From a virus: a stretch of 33,614 bases of DNA. The DNA lies in UHGV virus genome UHGV-1462514; one strand, 5' to 3'. A program made the translations under genes and the position numbers. Below are positions 3,866 through 25,318 of this stretch, piece after piece. Numbering within the stretch: the first letter of the stretch is position 1; the number at the start of each line of letters is the position of its first letter. The notes beneath the pieces were generated by a model, which saw only the letters and a program-made list of their open reading frames with translations, was not told the origin of the DNA and made no database searches.

Positions 3866-3939
3866 TGGACCATACAGGACTCGAACCTGTGACCGAACGG
3901 TTATGAGCCGTTTGCTCTAACCAACTGAGCTAATGGTCC
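3866..3939 (-). tRNA. tRNA with CAT anticodon (elongator tRNA-Met or lysidine tRNA-Ile2); 74 nt, no encoded CCA
   Basis: Manual cloverleaf: acceptor GGACCAT/ATGGTCC, D arm GCTC-AGTTGGTTA-GAGC, anticodon arm AACGG-CTCATAA-CCGTT, variable CGGTC, T arm ACAGG-TTCGAGT-CCTGT, discriminator A; G1-C72 pair argues against initiator. Confidence 0.85.
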
Positions 3940-4027
3940 TAAAAAGAGCCACCTTAGAAAGGCGACTCGAAAGAAATTTAATAAGTGTGTTATTATTTTA
4001 CACTACCTATAAATATTTTACTATACT

Positions 4028-12700: not shown

Positions 12701-12983
12701 TATTCGTTGCACGGGTAGCATCATCTGTACTAGCTCCCATAGCTGTTAAAACTTTAGGAAACTGGTTCAACTTGTCAAAACGTGTAACTGCTCCTTCAAT
12801 TGAGCCTTTTAAAACATCAAATGCTGCACTGCCCAACTTAACGAGCCCCATCGCTTTGACCATGTCTCCAATGCCTCGACTTGCTTTGGCGGACTTGCCT
12901 TCCAATTGGTCTAATTGATTATTTAGCCCTGTAACGTCCTTCCCATTCACATCGACATCAATTACTACACTTCCATCAGCCAT
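9714..12983 (-). CDS. Tail tape measure protein
   Basis: 1089 aa, alpha-helical and low-complexity, with Trp-containing periodic repeats (..AWSGAKQWASDTWEGVKQ..); position between the chaperones and Dit. Confidence 0.85.
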   Translation of the reverse strand: MADGSVVIDVDVNGKDVTGLNNQLDQLEGKSAKASRGIGDMVKAMGLVKLGSAAFDVLKGSIEGAVTRFDKLNQFPKVLTAMGASTDDATRATNKLKEGIDGLPTKLQDVSDTTQQMYSVFKDADLAADSTLALNNALLASGSIGEKAQRGTEQYMKILRTGKVDLDSYTTLQETMGFGLDKLAEKFGFTGKSAQQDLYKALQSGQVTVEQFNQGLIDIQDGLGGTKEVARKTTEGIATSFSNLKNSITNGMANVLTKFDEIVTKVSGKSIAANLNSLKGIVNNTFSAITKAMDGLIPVIDSIKKAFADNQSIIKIFSDTFDQAFKIIGFIVYDVINILQRFWGEISKSSESSSLIDILSSVFTTLKDVVLDVLENIQYFFDILGSVDVPEKLGAAFNNLKDILFDSVEAVANFFGSFNLGETSTSITETLIDTVILLVDTFLKVTEKAKDFIKWIDSGSTASDVFKGIIVALGVAISGVVLYYKAWQTYINLVVKAQKAWNLITKIGTGIQTAFNAVMSINPIFLIVGAIAALIAGLVYWITKTKSGQKAWKAFTDWLVKAWEGMVDFFKGVWEGITDIFDSAVKTVKELWKGTMDFFKKLGEDITSIFKSSIETVKDLWSGVTEFFQSLLDGIISAFNTSVEFLKGIWQSAVDVFNAIWETIGPTVMIIVDGIVELWNNFTETITGIWEGIKTTAEGVWELIKSVIMGPILLLIDLITGDWEQLKEDLSMIWESIKEAGSMIWDGIQQIIGSYVEGVVNFVKTVWETGKNFLSDIWEGISNIASTVWDAITSTISNLAKSALDGAKNAWSGAKQWASDTWESVKQTSAETWDGIKTTVSESAKNALEWAKSAWSGAKQWASDTWEGVKQATAEKWENTKSTVANLADATLKGMQSAWSTAKSIASDIWEGVKETVKAAMDFDLFAAGRAIMESFTDGLTHAWEATKEFVSGIGDWIREHKGPISYDRKLLIPAGKAIMGGLNESLQASFKSVQKTIKPMANQIADTLSFDNAFSNFNFTSPELALNTNMMGAANLGSQIVNNSNFAKTYNPTININIEHADLSNEKSIEETSQQLATLTERQTRGRL
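10383..10565. repeat. Tandem near-identical ~51-bp segments 132 bp apart inside the tape-measure gene (10383-10433 and 10515-10565), encoding repeated KSAWSGAKQWASDTWE(S/G)VKQ units
   Basis: Direct comparison of the two stretches. Confidence 0.6.
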
Positions 12984-13554
12984 CTTCCTCCTCCTCCCTT
13001 ACGTAATTTGGTAATGCATAACGCCTTTGAAGTTCTCTCATTTGTTCCTTGTGTTCAGTACTTTCTCCTTTTTGCGGTTTCCAGTTACGGATACTTTTAA
13101 TTTTTTGAATAGGCGTGTCATCTGGCAACGTTTCTAGCAATACTTGGAATTCTTCCCAAGACAAACGGCCCTGTTCTTCAAATAAATTGATACCTATTTG
13201 TCGAAAAGAGGCATAAATGTATTTTGCATCTAATACAATGTCCATATCTTTACTGACTGGTTTCATTGGCATAACATTTCCTAATTCATCGGTTACCACT
13301 TCTGATTTTTTACCAAAGACGAGATAGGTATCGTATAGTTCTCTGAACATCACAAACTGAGATATAATATCTAGTCCTACATCACCAACTAAAATCTTTA
13401 TACAAGTCTCTACCTTGTCTGGAAGATTCATCCCGTCATCAGACAGCACATCGAAAACATCCAACACACGATCAAAAGCAAGATTTAGAGGATACTCTTT
13501 CTCTTCAAACTCAAAAAAAGAGGGCAGCGGATCGTTTAACCGCATTGCGCTCAC
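12976..13554 (-). CDS. Tail assembly chaperone, T-like ORF, in the -1 frame relative to the upstream G-like ORF
   Basis: Overlaps the upstream ORF by 4 nt (GTGA); acidic; immediately upstream of the tape measure; internal ATG at 13543-13545 has RBS AAAGGG. Confidence 0.5.
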   Translation of the reverse strand: MSAMRLNDPLPSFFEFEEKEYPLNLAFDRVLDVFDVLSDDGMNLPDKVETCIKILVGDVGLDIISQFVMFRELYDTYLVFGKKSEVVTDELGNVMPMKPVSKDMDIVLDAKYIYASFRQIGINLFEEQGRLSWEEFQVLLETLPDDTPIQKIKSIRNWKPQKGESTEHKEQMRELQRRYALPNYVREEEEDG

Positions 13555-13958
13555 CCTTTCTTGCTAACTTTTTTCAAGTACTTCTGTTTTAAACGTTGTG
13601 AATTTTTAGTTTGTTCCTCTTTGAATTCGTCCAATTGATCGGCAATCCCGTTGTATAAATCAAAGAAAGCGTTTAGCCATGCGTTGATGTCTGGAATATC
13701 CGCATACAACGTATCGAATGTCCCTTCGCCTAACATGACGTCATACCCTTTTGCTAACAACTCTTTGTACGGCTCTAAGTCCAAGCTATCTGCATCGTCT
13801 TCATTGGGTCCTTCAATCGAATCTACTTCTTTTTCAAACGCTTCATAGTTTTTTTGTACCTCGATTAAATGTTCTGGTGAACTATCAAAGAAAAATTCAT
13901 GTCCTGCTATAATAACCGGAAAACCCGTGCGTGCTACGTTAATCTCTAATGCTTTCAT
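13551..13958 (-). CDS. Tail assembly chaperone (G-like), acidic, 135 aa
   Basis: Position between the major tail/Ig-like genes and the tape measure. Confidence 0.5.
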   Translation of the reverse strand: MKALEINVARTGFPVIIAGHEFFFDSSPEHLIEVQKNYEAFEKEVDSIEGPNEDDADSLDLEPYKELLAKGYDVMLGEGTFDTLYADIPDINAWLNAFFDLYNGIADQLDEFKEEQTKNSQRLKQKYLKKVSKKG

Positions 13959-13974
13959 TTAATTACCTCCATAA

Positions 13975-14003
13975 AAAAGGACAGCCAAATAGCTGCCCTT
14001 ATT
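13975..14003 (-). terminator. Probable intrinsic terminator downstream of the Ig-like gene
   Basis: - sense GGGCAGC-TATTT-GGCTGTCC followed by TTTTTT; stem has one mismatch. Confidence 0.35.
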
Positions 14004-14010
14004 TTCGTAT

Positions 14011-14463
14011 TTATGCTTGATTATTAAGTGTTAAGGTATGTTGTGCTGTTTTCTTACCATCCTCTGTTTCGCCTTCGGTAACATAAGTACCAGCTGGTAC
14101 CGTTTCTGTCCAAGTGATATTACCTGTTTCAGAGACAGCAAGGCCTTCTGTTACAGGCGTAATAGAATAGTTTACTTTTTTATTTGTAGCATTTTCAGGC
14201 AAAACAGTTGCTGTGATTTGTCGGCTACCTGCAGTACCCGCATCTGCTGTGGATGTTTTAGGAGAAAACTCTAAACCAGTTACAGCAATTGGAGATGTTT
14301 TAAATGCCGGTACATTTACTTTTTCCCCGCCGTCTGCAAAACCTACTTGGTATGTTCCTGCTGGAACGTCGGTGTTTGGCTCAATTCCTGTAATTTCTAG
14401 AGGGCTTGGACCAGCCGGAACAATGACTTCCTCACCTTTATAAACAATATACTCTCTTGCCAT
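14011..14463 (-). CDS. Bacterial Ig-like (Big_2-type) domain protein, separately initiated directly after the major tail gene
   Basis: RBS AAAGGAGAA 6 nt before ATG; Thr/Gly/Pro-rich beta-sandwich-like sequence ...TYQVGFADGGEKVNVPAFK...ITATVLPENATNKKVNYSI... Confidence 0.65.
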   Translation of the reverse strand: MAREYIVYKGEEVIVPAGPSPLEITGIEPNTDVPAGTYQVGFADGGEKVNVPAFKTSPIAVTGLEFSPKTSTADAGTAGSRQITATVLPENATNKKVNYSITPVTEGLAVSETGNITWTETVPAGTYVTEGETEDGKKTAQHTLTLNNQA

Positions 14464-14465
14464 TC

Positions 14466-14546
14466 TTATTCTCCTTTCTCCATTTCAATGATTACCCCAG
14501 TTTTAGTCGGAGTCATTTTACCGATTACTGGGGTTATGCTTTTGGG
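14466..14546 (-). other. Putative -1 programmed ribosomal frameshift cassette at the 3' end of the major tail gene: heptamer C_CCA_AAA (14540-14546), 6-nt spacer, stem CCCCAGT...ACTGGGG; the -1 frame encodes the 26-aa extension SITPVIGKMTPTKTGVIIEMEKGE, ending at TAA 14466-14468
   Basis: Read directly; the same heptamer, spacing and a homologous extension occur at the capsid gene 3' end (16508-16588). Confidence 0.6.
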
Positions 14547-15012
14547 CTGATTTTTGGTAACGTATCGTATTTGATTGAGCAACCGAATTCTTCGTATGCT
14601 GTTGCATCACCAGAACCTGCCTTAATGCCTGTAACTGTTGCACGTCCCACATAAACATCACCATTGGTTTGTACGACTTTATGCCAAATTTTACGGCCAT
14701 CACCTAATTTGTATTTTTTACTAGCAATTAATTGTTGTGCTGGGTCTTCAGCATCGTACATGCCTTCAGGTGTATACGTACCAGATACTGATACTACAGT
14801 CGTTTCAGGCGTTCCATCACCATCATAAAAGCCCGTATCATCTGTTTCTTCGTCTGAATCATCACCAATGGTTGAAATATATTTTGCTAGTCGCAACCAT
14901 TCTGTATCTTCCGTAGGAGCTGTTTCTTTCCCTGGTGTATATTCAGCGATATAGTGTTCACGTTTCGCATTTTTTTCACGTGCAAACATTTGGATATCCA
15001 TTTTTAATAACA
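14534..15012 (-). CDS. Major tail protein
   Basis: RBS AAGGGGG 8 nt before ATG 15012 (MLLKMDIQMF...); 159 aa; position; ends ...LPKISPKA*. Confidence 0.7.
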
Positions 15013-15411
15013 TTATTTTTCCCCCTTGAATGTGGTTAATTTTGCTTGAAAATCTAATAAAAAAACGAACCAACCTTGTTCATCTGCTTCATTGATGAAA
15101 GGTCTGTTCGTTATTGTTAAATTGTTATACTCAAAAGAGCTATCTTTACTTGGTAGTTCTTCAATATTTTCTAATATATCCGATAGCAGCCATAACGTAT
15201 GCTCTATCTTACCACCGTCTTTTGATTTCATGGCAATTTCATAGTTTAACAACTCGTCTTTGATTCCGTCATAATATTCGGTTTCTACCCTACCGCCCGG
15301 TAATGGGTAAATCACTAAGCTTTCTAGTGCTGAAAGGTATCCTTTCCGAATATTTAACGGCAAATTAGGAATCTGGTTTATCTTTTCATTTAAACAATCA
15401 AGAAAATCCAT
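15013..15411 (-). CDS. Tail completion / neck protein (hypothetical)
   Basis: Position between head-tail joining genes and the major tail. Confidence 0.4.
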   Translation of the reverse strand: MDFLDCLNEKINQIPNLPLNIRKGYLSALESLVIYPLPGGRVETEYYDGIKDELLNYEIAMKSKDGGKIEHTLWLLSDILENIEELPSKDSSFEYNNLTITNRPFINEADEQGWFVFLLDFQAKLTTFKGEK

Positions 15412-15737
15412 TACTTAATACCCGCTCCTTTCAGAAAAGCCCGTTTCCACGAATTTAGATAAGCGCCTTTTGCTTTTAAATCCCATCTTGGCCCAGTACC
15501 TGGTGTGGTATATTTTTTTCCGTTCAAATAAAATTGACGTTTCGCGTATTTCGTGCCGTAAATAATCTTTTCACCATTGTTTGATAAATGAACGCTTTGC
15601 CTTAAAATATTATTCTTTCGTGGTACAAATTGGTTCATATCTGCCATCGCTTGATTACCCAGCGCATATCTGCCTCGTCTCATTGCCTCAGGGCTTACTT
15701 TGGTTCTTACACCGCTTAAATTTACCTTAATCCCCAT
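15411..15737 (-). CDS. Head-tail joining protein (HK97 gp10-like), hypothetical
   Basis: 108 aa; position; abuts the upstream gene. Confidence 0.4.
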   Translation of the reverse strand: MGIKVNLSGVRTKVSPEAMRRGRYALGNQAMADMNQFVPRKNNILRQSVHLSNNGEKIIYGTKYAKRQFYLNGKKYTTPGTGPRWDLKAKGAYLNSWKRAFLKGAGIK

Positions 15738-16081
15738 CAGATTACCTCAATCTCATAAGAATAAATAGTGGCTGCTTGATAGGCTTCTATGACAGTATCA
15801 ATTTTAGTGATTACGTGTTCCTTACCATCATAAATAACCAATGATTGTTCTTTGAATTCAGGAAAGGGCATAGTCAATCCGTGATAACAGAAAATCAATC
15901 CGTTATAGAGCAACTGTTTACCGCTTGATGAAAAGGTATATTGGCTTCCTCTGTCAATCCGGCAATACTCAATAAGAACTGGTTCCTTGTATACTGGCTT
16001 GTTCCAATCGCCCTCCCCTAAGTACTCTTTATACTCAAAGGAATCGACTAAGAACTTTTTGGGTGGCTTTGGCATTAGCAT
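15737..16081 (-). CDS. Head closure / head-tail adaptor protein (hypothetical)
   Basis: 114 aa; position. Confidence 0.4.
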   Translation of the reverse strand: MLMPKPPKKFLVDSFEYKEYLGEGDWNKPVYKEPVLIEYCRIDRGSQYTFSSSGKQLLYNGLIFCYHGLTMPFPEFKEQSLVIYDGKEHVITKIDTVIEAYQAATIYSYEIEVI

Positions 16082-16479
16082 GACGAAACACCTCGATATA
16101 ACAAACCTGTACCTTCCAGATACAAATAAACGTCTTCGGCAGTCAACGACTTACTTTCGTTATTTCCAGAAGGATTGTAGCGACTGGCATTAGAAATACT
16201 CGTACGGCCTGCTGAAAAGCTTTGAGGGGCATTGTTGATACTTTCATACGTATCCGCACCAACATCGACAAAATACATTATTTGCGCACACAGAGCGAGT
16301 TTAAACTGTTTCACTCTAAATTGCCTAGAATCTTTCGTTATATCATTGAACTGATAAAAGTAATTCGTTACATTATCAATCGCTGCGGTGGCTTTTACTA
16401 AATATTTGTCAAAGTTATCTTTATATTCATCTGTGGCGCCTGTAAGCTCTTTAAACTCTTCAAAATCAATATAGGACAT
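16075..16479 (-). CDS. Head-tail connector (gp6-like DNA-packaging / connector protein)
   Basis: RBS TAGGAGGA before ATG; 134 aa; first gene after the major capsid. Confidence 0.5.
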   Translation of the reverse strand: MSYIDFEEFKELTGATDEYKDNFDKYLVKATAAIDNVTNYFYQFNDITKDSRQFRVKQFKLALCAQIMYFVDVGADTYESINNAPQSFSAGRTSISNASRYNPSGNNESKSLTAEDVYLYLEGTGLLYRGVSSC

Positions 16480-16490
16480 CTTAGATTCCT

Positions 16491-16520
16491 CCTAAAAAAG
16501 AAGGAGACTAAGCTCCTTCT
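16491..16520 (-). terminator. Intrinsic terminator (attenuator) directly after the major capsid gene and its -1 extension
   Basis: - sense GAAGGAG-CTTAGT-CTCCTTC (7-bp stem) followed by TTTTTT. Confidence 0.5.
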
Positions 16521-16588
16521 TCCATTTCAATAACTACCCCGCTTGTTGTCGGCGTTAGATTACCAACTTTCGGGGCTACGCTTTTGGG
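16508..16588 (-). other. Putative -1 programmed ribosomal frameshift cassette at the 3' end of the major capsid gene: heptamer C_CCA_AAA (16582-16588), 6-nt spacer, stem CCCCG...CGGGG; the -1 frame encodes [24 protein letters not shown], ending at TAG 16508-16510
   Basis: Read directly; paralogous to the tail-gene cassette (14466-14546). Confidence 0.6.
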
Positions 16589-17436
16589 ACATATGACACA
16601 TAAATAGCTTTTTTCGCATTATCAAATACAATTGCATCATAGTAATCCAAACCTTTAATTGTATCACGGTAACCACTACGGTCTTGCGAAGCTGGCACAG
16701 TATCAACTGTCCCGTATTTGACAATTGGCGCAACTGCAGTTAAAGGAACAATGATAAAGTTTAATTTATCTTCAATGTTCACACCTGAGAAACGGTCTTT
16801 CGCCACTTTTAAGATGGGCACGCCACCGTCAATTTGAGCTACTGTGCGATTAATACCATTGATTGCCATTTGGTTAGTAGAAAATGATTTTGTTACCCCT
16901 TTGGCATTTTTTAGCAAGCGATAGGTTGCTGCCGAAACGAACATTACATATCCGCCAGGAACTTCGTTGTCTGTCATATATTCTTCTGCAGCATCATAAG
17001 CCGCTAAAATATTGTCTTCTGTTAATGTTTCATTCACTTTTTTTTCAGCACTATCAAACATTACTTGTACTGCTACTTTGTCACGATGCGGTACAGTGAC
17101 TAAACGCTTGTGCTCTGTCACAATGTTATTAATCGTTAACGCTGCACTTTCAGACTGATCTAATTGATCGACATCATAACCAAACCAGTCTTCATGCGTT
17201 AATTTGATTGTTTCTTTGGCGATATCAATTTGGTTACGTGCATTTTCCCCATTACGTTTGTATTGCGTTGCTTCCATGAATCCTGACATCTTATTCACTC
17301 GTACTTCGTTCACGCCTACAAAATCGGCTGCAGTGATACTTTTTGCGCCTTGCGTCAAAATATCCCACACTTGGGAATCTGCGCGATATTCTTTATCAAT
17401 TGTTGCTAAATCTTTTGAATCTAATACTACTGCCAT
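16576..17436 (-). CDS. Major capsid protein
   Basis: 286 aa; directly downstream of scaffold; ends ...VSYVPKA*. Confidence 0.8.
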
Positions 17437-25147: not shown

Positions 25148-25318
25148 TTAAATTTTCCATTCGCCATCTTTCATATTGGTTTTATTCATATAATTTCTTT
25201 CATCACGAGCAATTGTATAATCGAAAAATAAATCAGCTTGCTCTGATCCATGCAGGTACTCAACATAAACGCCGTCTACTTGACGTTCCAGTATATATAA
25301 TTCTGGATAACTTAGCAT
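25148..25318 (-). CDS. Small hypothetical protein (56 aa)
   Basis: RBS GGAGGA 7 nt before ATG; start overlaps the upstream ORF stop (TAATG). Confidence 0.4.
   Translation of the reverse strand: MLSYPELYILERQVDGVYVEYLHGSEQADLFFDYTIARDERNYMNKTNMKDGEWKI

Follow-up and report, generated by a model that had tools for sequence, protein, structure and literature searches.

A pair of probable recoding cassettes on the capsid and tail genes of an Enterococcus faecalis phage and a candidate split FN3-like docking tag

The 3' ends of the capsid and tail genes

We analysed the viral genome UHGV-1462514, a stretch of 33,614 nucleotides (nt) that is called the window throughout, with attention to the 3' ends of its major capsid gene, cps, and its major tail (tail shaft) gene, tsh. 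The cps gene ends in GTC CCA AAA GCG TAG and the tsh gene in AGC CCA AAA GCA TAA. In both genes the -1 frame stays open past the stop codon and encodes a short peptide, referred to here as the tag. The gene 3' of tsh encodes a protein with an immunoglobulin (Ig)-like Big_2 domain, referred to here as the partner. The coordinates of these features are listed in Table 1. The structural module is A118-like (Phage_Gp15, Minor_capsid_1/2), and the host is Enterococcus faecalis, from which a 98% identical protein has been annotated. The capsid protein is 92% identical to that of Enterococcus phage 4995_2 and 61-63% identical to those of Lactobacillus phages LL-H, mv4 and phiJB g34. The tail protein shares 73% identity with tail genes of Enterococcus prophages and 40% with Tsh of Listeria phages A118 and A500.

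Table 1. Features of the capsid, tail and partner genes in the window (for the putatively stimulatory hairpins, RNAfold energies were computed over 52 nt and z is relative to dinucleotide shuffles)
Feature	Position	Strand	Support
Major capsid gene cps, 0 frame, 286 amino acids (aa), ending VPKA-stop	16576..17436	-	PHROG 422 major head protein, E = 5.9e-74
Slippery heptamer C_CCA_AAA of cps, one codon 5' of the TAG stop	16582..16588	-	
Capsid tag, -1 extension open reading frame (ORF) of cps, stop 16510..16508	16508..16588	-	tag hidden Markov model (HMM) score 50.0
Two-tier hairpin of cps, putatively stimulatory, outer GCCCCG/CGGGGU, inner GUUGGU/GCCGAC	16536..16576	-	RNAfold -17.4 kcal/mol, z = -2.5
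Terminator-like hairpin with U6, capsid-tag stop in the loop	16491..16523	-	RNAfold -13.1 kcal/mol, z = -1.3
Major tail (tail shaft) gene tsh, 0 frame, 159 aa, ATG at 15013, ending SPKA-stop	14534..15013	-	PHROG 820 major tail protein, E = 1.1e-60
Slippery heptamer C_CCA_AAA of tsh, one codon 5' of the TAA stop	14540..14546	-	
Tail tag, -1 extension ORF of tsh, PKSITPVIGKMTPTKTGVIIEMEKGE then stop at 14468..14466	14466..14546	-	tag HMM score 43.8
Two-tier hairpin of tsh, putatively stimulatory, outer ACCCCAGU/ACUGGGGU, inner UCGG/CCGA	14494..14534	-	RNAfold -16.9 kcal/mol, z = -3.9
Partner gene, 150 aa, own ribosome-binding site (RBS) and ATG; N-terminal half-domain of ~57 aa (proposed FN3 strands C to G), then Big_2	14011..14463	-	PHROG 341, E = 4.3e-45
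Strong intrinsic terminator 3' of the partner gene	13977..14000	-	scan match, 10-bp stem; RNAfold -16.1 kcal/mol, z = -4.1

The sequence confirmed the starting point of the original prediction, that C_CCA_AAA lies one codon before the stop in both genes. Both heptamers are in the X_XXY_YYZ register, with CCA and AAA as 0-frame codons, as in a canonical -1 site. Counted from the heptamer, the -1 frame is open for 26 codons in each gene (an ORF of 81 nt each), and the two peptides are homologous. A -1 shift would add a net 23 residues, or a computed +2,298 Da for the capsid protein and +2,471 Da for the tail protein, rather than the about 2.7 kDa first predicted. The predicted C-terminal peptides of the extended forms are VGNLTPTTSGVVIEMEEGA and TGVIIEMEK/GE, and SVAPK and SITPVIGK would span the junctions. 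Including the initiator Met, the computed masses are 31,681 and 33,979 Da for the normal and extended capsid protein, 17,565 and 20,036 Da for the normal and extended tail protein, and 15,658 Da for the product of the Ig-like gene (15,527 Da once Met is removed). As had also been predicted, the tail tag stops 2 nt 5' of the ATG of the Ig-like gene (14463), and its last codons contain the AAAGGAG RBS.

The bare heptamer is unremarkable alone, since CCCAAAA occurs 12 times in the window with 6.8 occurrences expected. The 13-mer CCCAAAAGNNTAR, with an expectation of 0.01, occurs twice in the 33.6 kb, both times at these sites. Another CCCAAAA at 16057..16063 in the Minor_capsid_1 gene was dismissed because it is in the wrong register (CCC_AAA_A).

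We compared the two 81-nt cassettes with each other. They align without gaps and are identical at 59/81 nt, and their differences are distributed 7:4:11 over the codon positions of the tag frame. The paired translations had a BLOSUM62 score of 91 in the tag frame vs. 56 and 47 in the other two frames. When substitutions of equal density were placed at random, an open frame with at least the observed score was obtained in 0.09% of 20,000 trials. This frame-specific conservation supports the claim that the -1 frames encode homologous peptides under selection. The +1 frame of tsh closes after 5 codons (NPSNR) and the window has no CCC-stop at these ends, which does not fit recoding of the A118/PSA +1 type. 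The extensions of 24 residues are not complete Ig-like domains of the Big_2, FN3 or I-set kind.

In both cassettes a hairpin follows the heptamer. The original prediction placed a stem exactly 6 nt downstream; the hairpin is there, but RNAfold pairing starts 5 nt past the heptamer, within the usual spacer of 5-8 nt, and 6 nt is obtained only if the count runs to the CCCC. Counts of covariation in a fixed register were dropped because the outer stem shifts its register by 1 nt between cassette types. This shift fits selection for a stem and not for specific base pairs. The counts were replaced by a synonymous-recoding test in which the tag peptide is kept. The capsid hairpin was more stable than its synonymous recodings (z = -2.43, p = 0.010). 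Among the distinct -1 cassettes, 25 of 34 folded better than their recodings at p <= 0.05, with a median z of -2.2. The stem arms are built from rare codons (GCC, ACC, CCG and GGG, at 12-14% each).

The capsid extension had been predicted to stop exactly at an intrinsic terminator. A hairpin with U6 and the stop in its loop is indeed present, but it is weak and a consensus terminator scan did not call it. From its sequence, this hairpin would be a weak or partial terminator at best.

Recoding sites and tags in related phages

The original prediction knew of a precedent only in the +1 recoding of a Listeria phage. This was too narrow, since the cps genes of A118 and A500 use -1 and Lactobacillus phage A2 uses the same heptamer as the window in head and tail genes. 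In the A2 genome sequence, ORF5 ends in ACC CCA AAA GCG TAA and ORF10 in GCC CCA AAA GCG TAG, and the -1 frame leads into Big_2. According to the published account, -1 frameshifting occurs in both the head (gp5A/gp5B) and the tail (gp10A/gp10B) gene, the products are virion proteins, and CCCAAAA is named as the A2 slippery sequence. The recoding site of the window is of this known A2 type, and a duplicated -1 site on head and tail genes was already known. The likeness lies in the identical C_CCA_AAA-GCG-stop closing the head and tail genes of one phage (with GCA for GCG in the tsh gene of the window). The difference is that each A2 extension is a complete Big_2 domain of ~85-95 residues, whereas the window has a tag of 24 residues, the same on both genes, with the rest of the domain apparently encoded separately. 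The A2 capsid and tail proteins also come from other families.

The same site is common among close relatives. Fifteen of the 20 capsid relatives from prophages (79-90% identical) retain the sequence gtC CCA AAA GCG TAG/TAA, and Enterococcus phage 4995_2 has it too. In all 16 of these, the -1 frame leads into a full Big_2 domain of ~85-95 codons, and six Lacticaseibacillus prophages have the same site-to-Big_2 arrangement on the tail gene too. The heptamer is also kept in diverged tail genes, namely those of the L037 group (ACC CCA AAA GTA TAA) and of loci L045 and L082. The alignment of homologues that had been proposed as a check was thus carried out, and heptamer, hairpin and frame are conserved among relatives.

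Other known systems are more distant in their details. Listeria phages A118, A500 and PSA have a related structural module, and both genes are recoded at their 3' ends. In A118 and A500, cps uses -1 at G_GGA_AAC one codon 5' of the stop, as in the window. In contrast, tsh of these phages shifts by +1 at CCC_UGA to enter a contiguous Ig-like ORF, and cps is extended by ORF7, which is of the HeH/LEM type. In Bacillus phage SPP1 (gp17.1/gp17.1*), frameshifting at the gene end adds a contiguous, dispensable FN3 domain to a fraction of the tail-tube subunits (3:1). The closest tail relatives of the window (L007 and L009, 73% identical) likewise have -1 at CCA_AAA_AAA into a contiguous FN3. The window resembles SPP1 in that part of the tail subunits would be extended by frameshifting at the gene end. 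It differs in that, in place of a contiguous FN3, apparently only the first two strands are attached, and the same tag is on the capsid gene too.

A non-canonical -1 site, (T/G)CG GGG GAG-stop, recurs at no fewer than 13 distinct junctions, 5' of full Big_2 extensions as well as of tags. It was seen in the tail genes of L006 and L008, in capsid genes of the L048 type, and in L108-L117. It would need a single-tRNA slip on G_GGG.

We next describe the tag family. Each locus that bears PHROG 341 and has enough flanking sequence gave exactly two matches to the tag HMM, of which one closes the capsid gene and the other the tail gene. The N-terminal domain of the partner was absent from all 25 tagless loci examined. 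The tag pair spans at least three capsid families and two tail families, and the phages are from Enterococcus, Staphylococcus (Triavirus, phage 187, IMEP5), Mammaliicoccus and Latilactobacillus or are of Bacillales type. Two tags within one genome are 60% identical vs. 31% between genomes (permutation p < 1e-4). Upstream of homologous tags, 82 distinct recoding junctions were counted, each with a recognisable shifty motif. At 42 of these the tag is accessed by -1 (C_CCA_AAA; G_GGA_AAG/C; A_AAA_AAA; CG_GGG_GAG; TCA_AAA_TAA) and at 40 by +1 (CCC_TAA/TAG; CCC_AGC_TAA; CCC_TCG_TAA; CCC_TCA_TAA); access is in frame or unresolved in 6 further cases. The Staphylococcus members use CCC_TAA/TAG. The partner gene is 3' of the tail gene in the Enterococcus phages and phage 3A, and 3' of the capsid gene in phage 187, L108-L117 and Latilactobacillus phage TMW 1.706 P2.

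In some phages the tail tag is fused in frame, through two independent 1-nt insertions, seen in loci L064, L068, L069, L085 (phiEf11) and L074. The junctions read CCA GAA AAA GTA GAT and CAC GGG AAA GTA GAT, vs. CCG GGA AAG TAG AT in the recoded form. The in-frame fusions of phiEf11 and L074 show directly that the tag is translated to form the C-terminal end of the tail protein. In such phages, every tail subunit would bear the tag.

PhiEf11 has the same tag family and the same partner as the window, and its capsid tag is reached by -1 at A_AAA_AAA. It differs in its capsid and tail families (the tail protein is PF06199) and in its in-frame tail tag. In phiEf11 virions, two capsid bands were found for ORF10, and the authors proposed a -1 extension of 21 residues that they called speculative. 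The published account concerns ORF10 only; no connection between the peptide and ORF15 or ORF16 is drawn there. In the published gel, ORF15 runs at 28-30 kDa vs. 21.5 kDa predicted.

Published intact-virion mass data are available for Triavirus (PMC5923470, matrix-assisted laser desorption/ionization (MALDI)). There, the tail protein was assigned to 23,295 Da and an 'Ig-like domain' protein of phage 3A to 15,857 Da, and the peaks at 25,208 and 12,598, common to the phages, were left unassigned by the authors. We calculated the commonest Triavirus tail protein without Met at 23,295 Da, its +1 tagged form at 25,205 Da (loci L143 and L155), and the phage 3A partner without Met at 15,855 Da. For phage 3A itself the tagged tail protein comes to a predicted 25,245 Da, and for phages 42E and 47 to 25,205 Da. 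These values fit a partner that is a free, separately initiated virion protein, and the presence of a tail species of the predicted tagged mass. Since the partner is found at its free mass, this relative apparently has no covalent (isopeptide) bond between tag and partner. A peak at 30,373 Da is ambiguous, as mature capsid protein and extended capsid protein each fit with different cleavage sites.

The comparison with relatives (the A2 site, the capsid relatives, the hairpins and the in-frame fusions) supports the frameshift interpretation of the original prediction. On this sequence evidence, -1 frameshifting at cps and tsh very probably yields extended forms, Cps-L and Tsh-L, in the phage of the window.

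Two members of the tag family have unusual arrangements. In TMW 1.706 P2, cps and tsh both end in GCG TCA AAA TAA CAGCCCC with -1 tags, which resembles a single-tRNA slip on A_AAA beside the stop. In Staphylococcus phage IMEP5 (L088, 1656-2592 and 3316-4762), the tail gene, +1 tag and partner start are tandemly duplicated, and the first partner copy is cut at 83 aa. Either the cassette was duplicated recently or the arrangement is an artefact of assembly.

The partner protein and a proposed split FN3-like domain

What the peptide is had been missed by the original prediction: it is probably the first two strands of a split FN3-like domain that, according to modelling, the N-terminus of the Ig-like gene product completes. 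The partner is 73-75% identical to phiEf11 ORF16. Its Big_2 domain is below threshold in Pfam, its PDB relatives cover the Big_2 part only, and one homologue is named FN3 domain protein by NCBI. Homologues of the partner (phiEf11 ORF16, phage 3A ORF023, phage 187 gp07) are widely annotated as 'major tail protein' or 'phage tail protein'. The true tail-tube gene adjoins the partner gene or sits elsewhere, and this annotation has apparently spread by homology.

We determined where the N-terminal part of the partner falls in Ig-like profiles. In stand-alone homologues, residue ~3 aligns to position ~33 of the fn3, fn3_2, Big_3_5 and FlgD_ig profiles (E = 0.006-0.12), and therefore these proteins begin ~30 positions into an Ig-like domain. 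When compared with the PDB, a profile of the tag plus the N-terminal domain matched FN3 domains of fibronectin only; the matches were weak (E = 0.004-1) and collinear, and one alignment crosses the junction between tag and partner. The profile had 202 database relatives. Among the 120 listed, none has a contiguous tag and domain; they cover the domain part only, always at the N-terminus of the protein, indicating that the split is old and stable.

The tail tag and partner were then modelled with AlphaFold2 as one chain, with an alignment of 106 homologues that all cover the partner only and leave no rows over the tag. The prediction had a mean predicted local distance difference test (pLDDT) score of 95.3, and the tag was placed as strands at 6-12 and 15-20 with pLDDT 88-97. 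In the predicted first domain, the tag strands are followed by five more before Big_2 (29-33, 36-42, 46-48, 63-66 and short C-terminal strands), giving a seven-stranded beta-sandwich. The single-sequence prediction of tag plus partner had a pLDDT of 32. With Foldseek, the model matched tandem Ig/FN3 proteins over ~190-200 alignment columns, near its full length. The profile offsets, together with the strand count of the model, suggest that the partner lacks strands A and B. In the lineage of the window, the tag has 3 extra residues (…EKGE) and the partner lacks 3 residues in the would-be FG loop. The BC and FG loops are adjacent in FN3, and this match of tag lengthening with partner shortening is suggestive, although it is a single evolutionary event.

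Given these observations, we propose that the tag is a split-domain docking tag for the partner in trans, and we put the probability of this model-based reading at roughly 0.55. A minority of the ribosomes on cps and tsh would pause at the hairpin while CCA occupies the P site and AAA the A site, slip one base back to CCC and AAA, and read 24 more codons, giving Cps-L (+2.30 kDa) and Tsh-L (+2.47 kDa) with homologous last 24 residues. The tag, not itself an Ig-like domain, would serve as a docking peptide, contributing the A and B beta-strands to an FN3-like sandwich. Translated from an RBS of its own, the partner would bring the other five strands in its first ~57 residues, followed by Big_2. 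Its half-domain would probably be unable to fold alone and would complete its fold on the tag. In this manner, tag binding would fix Big_2 non-covalently on both head and tail, and the frameshift efficiency would determine how dense the decoration is. By analogy with what has been proposed for other phage Ig-like domains, the decoration would probably serve reversible adhesion to cell-wall or environmental glycans.

Completion of an Ig-like sandwich that lacks a strand by a peptide from another chain is known from donor-strand complementation in chaperone-usher pili and from the engineered SpyTag/SpyCatcher pair. The proposed system is similar in that a short peptide from another polypeptide finishes an Ig-like sandwich and would give a tight and specific attachment. 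In contrast to these systems, it has no chaperone or usher, two strands (A and B) would be given and not one, the donor peptide would be made only through recoding, and the bond is apparently non-covalent. Our search of the literature on split FN3 domains, or on a decoration protein common to head and tail, returned nothing relevant. The element that looks new is the cargo, a short shared tag with a partner encoded in trans, which is undescribed in the literature searched.

The C-terminus of some partners carries a tag-like peptide: P0238 (S. gallinarum, 89 aa), P0036, and L131/L132/L159 around 3888-4025, with ends such as …PAEPTNVTTETTDSSADVNAE and …EEPDNVEVEANENDADVSAE. A half-domain with its own tag could complement itself or polymerise head to tail in a pilin-like manner. 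At about even odds, we consider the whole to be a widespread attachment system of Firmicutes siphophages, in which a frameshift tag of ~20-24 residues (-1 or +1) on a fraction of capsid and tail subunits receives a split FN3-like partner that usually continues into Big_2 domains, and in which some partners are self-tagged and could polymerise.

Weighing the docking proposal

The frameshifting could be real and the tag could still act alone; as a flexible C-terminus it might, for instance, modulate the assembly or stability of capsid and tail, with the partner attached by some other surface. Such extensions have parallels: some structural proteins bear short frameshift extensions that have no known partners, and a review contrasts T7 with T3 in this regard. 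A tag that acts alone would also suit the TMW 1.706 P2 partner without a cargo domain, and trans binding is a prediction here. We regard this explanation as unlikely, since it accounts neither for the strict co-occurrence of two tags with a partner and their joint absence, nor for a partner that enters Ig/FN3 profiles ~30 positions from their start, nor for the confidence with which AlphaFold2 models the tag as strands A and B. A different route to an attached Big_2 would be a second recoding event at the TAA-GA-ATG junction, which would produce a Tsh-FN3-Big_2 fusion like the Tsh-L of A118. In its favour, only 2 nt separate tag and partner, the two together are collinear with a single FN3 domain, and in A118 frameshifting from tsh does reach the Ig-like ORF13. 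However, the partner frame has a TGA 8 codons 5' of the ATG, and the intervening 19 nt contain no shifty motif. For this reason we reject the second-frameshift fusion as very unlikely. It is also at odds with the stop, RBS and ATG retained across all lineages (spacers of 2-35 nt), with capsid tags that terminate without a partner behind them, and with the phage 3A partner, which is found at the mass of its stand-alone ORF without Met.

The two remaining explanations deny the peptide a function. The cassettes might be decaying remnants of full Ig-like extensions, with residual frameshifting into a functionless peptide; after all, close capsid relatives bear a full Big_2 at the same site and the window has an extension of just 24 residues. 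We consider this highly improbable, because a short tag is kept open and frame-constrained on two unrelated genes per genome, across many phage lineages, families and shift sites. Alternatively, the elements might act in the RNA only, as terminators, attenuators or stabilising hairpins after highly expressed genes, with incidentally open -1 frames. The hairpins do sit just past the stop codons, and a terminator-like hairpin follows the capsid cassette. However, the first hairpins have no U-run, the peptide conservation is confined to one frame, in-frame fusions of the tag exist, and a Triavirus virion mass fits the tagged tail protein. A purely RNA-level role is therefore highly improbable.

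Several points weigh against the docking proposal or the frameshifting on which it builds. The most serious limitation is that binding in trans is argued from comparative genomics and a single-chain prediction, and the one-chain AlphaFold2 model speaks for compatibility of tag and partner, not for binding in trans. All FN3 evidence at the sequence level is below threshold: Pfam gave no fn3 match on the tag-plus-partner concatenation, and hhalign of the tag plus N-terminal domain profile with the contiguous L007 FN3 extension aligned 12 collinear columns, which is not significant. Since many of the loci are closely related, the co-occurrence of tag and partner represents perhaps 6-8 independent lineages. 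In TMW 1.706 P2 (L001 1536-1757), the partner, annotated 'tail tip protein', has 73 aa and consists of the half-domain without Big_2; such a cargo-less partner is unexplained by a pure 'anchor for an Ig domain' rationale. The tail hairpin of the window was only marginally more stable than its synonymous recodings (z = -1.77, p = 0.057). No extension peptides were found when phiEf11 was examined by mass spectrometry, and the assignment of the 25,208 Da peak to the tagged tail protein is our own, made from a list of shared peaks.

The significance of the cassettes depends on which part holds. The frameshift alone, if real, would add a further phage to those with A2-type sites; this would help annotation but be unsurprising. 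Docking, if true, would account for the 'intergenic gaps' of ~70-90 nt after capsid and tail genes in hundreds of Staphylococcus, Enterococcus and related phage genomes, and for the small Ig-like 'major tail protein' beside the true tail gene. It would show how a separately made decoration protein reaches two unrelated lattices, and would assign a single function to the varied routes, -1, +1 and in frame, that are used at these gene ends. It would also offer a natural, non-covalent split-FN3 pair of tag and receptor for cargo display on heads and tails, with a density that could be tuned via the frameshift signal.

Two further genes lie on the minus strand between the partner gene and the tape measure gene, at 13551..13958 (DUF6673/PHROG 1061) and 12976..13554 (Phage_Gp15). 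No canonical heptamer was seen in the short open -1 stretch at their overlap. They overlap by 4 nt (GTGA), the second gene being in the -1 frame, and their position is that of a tail assembly chaperone pair.

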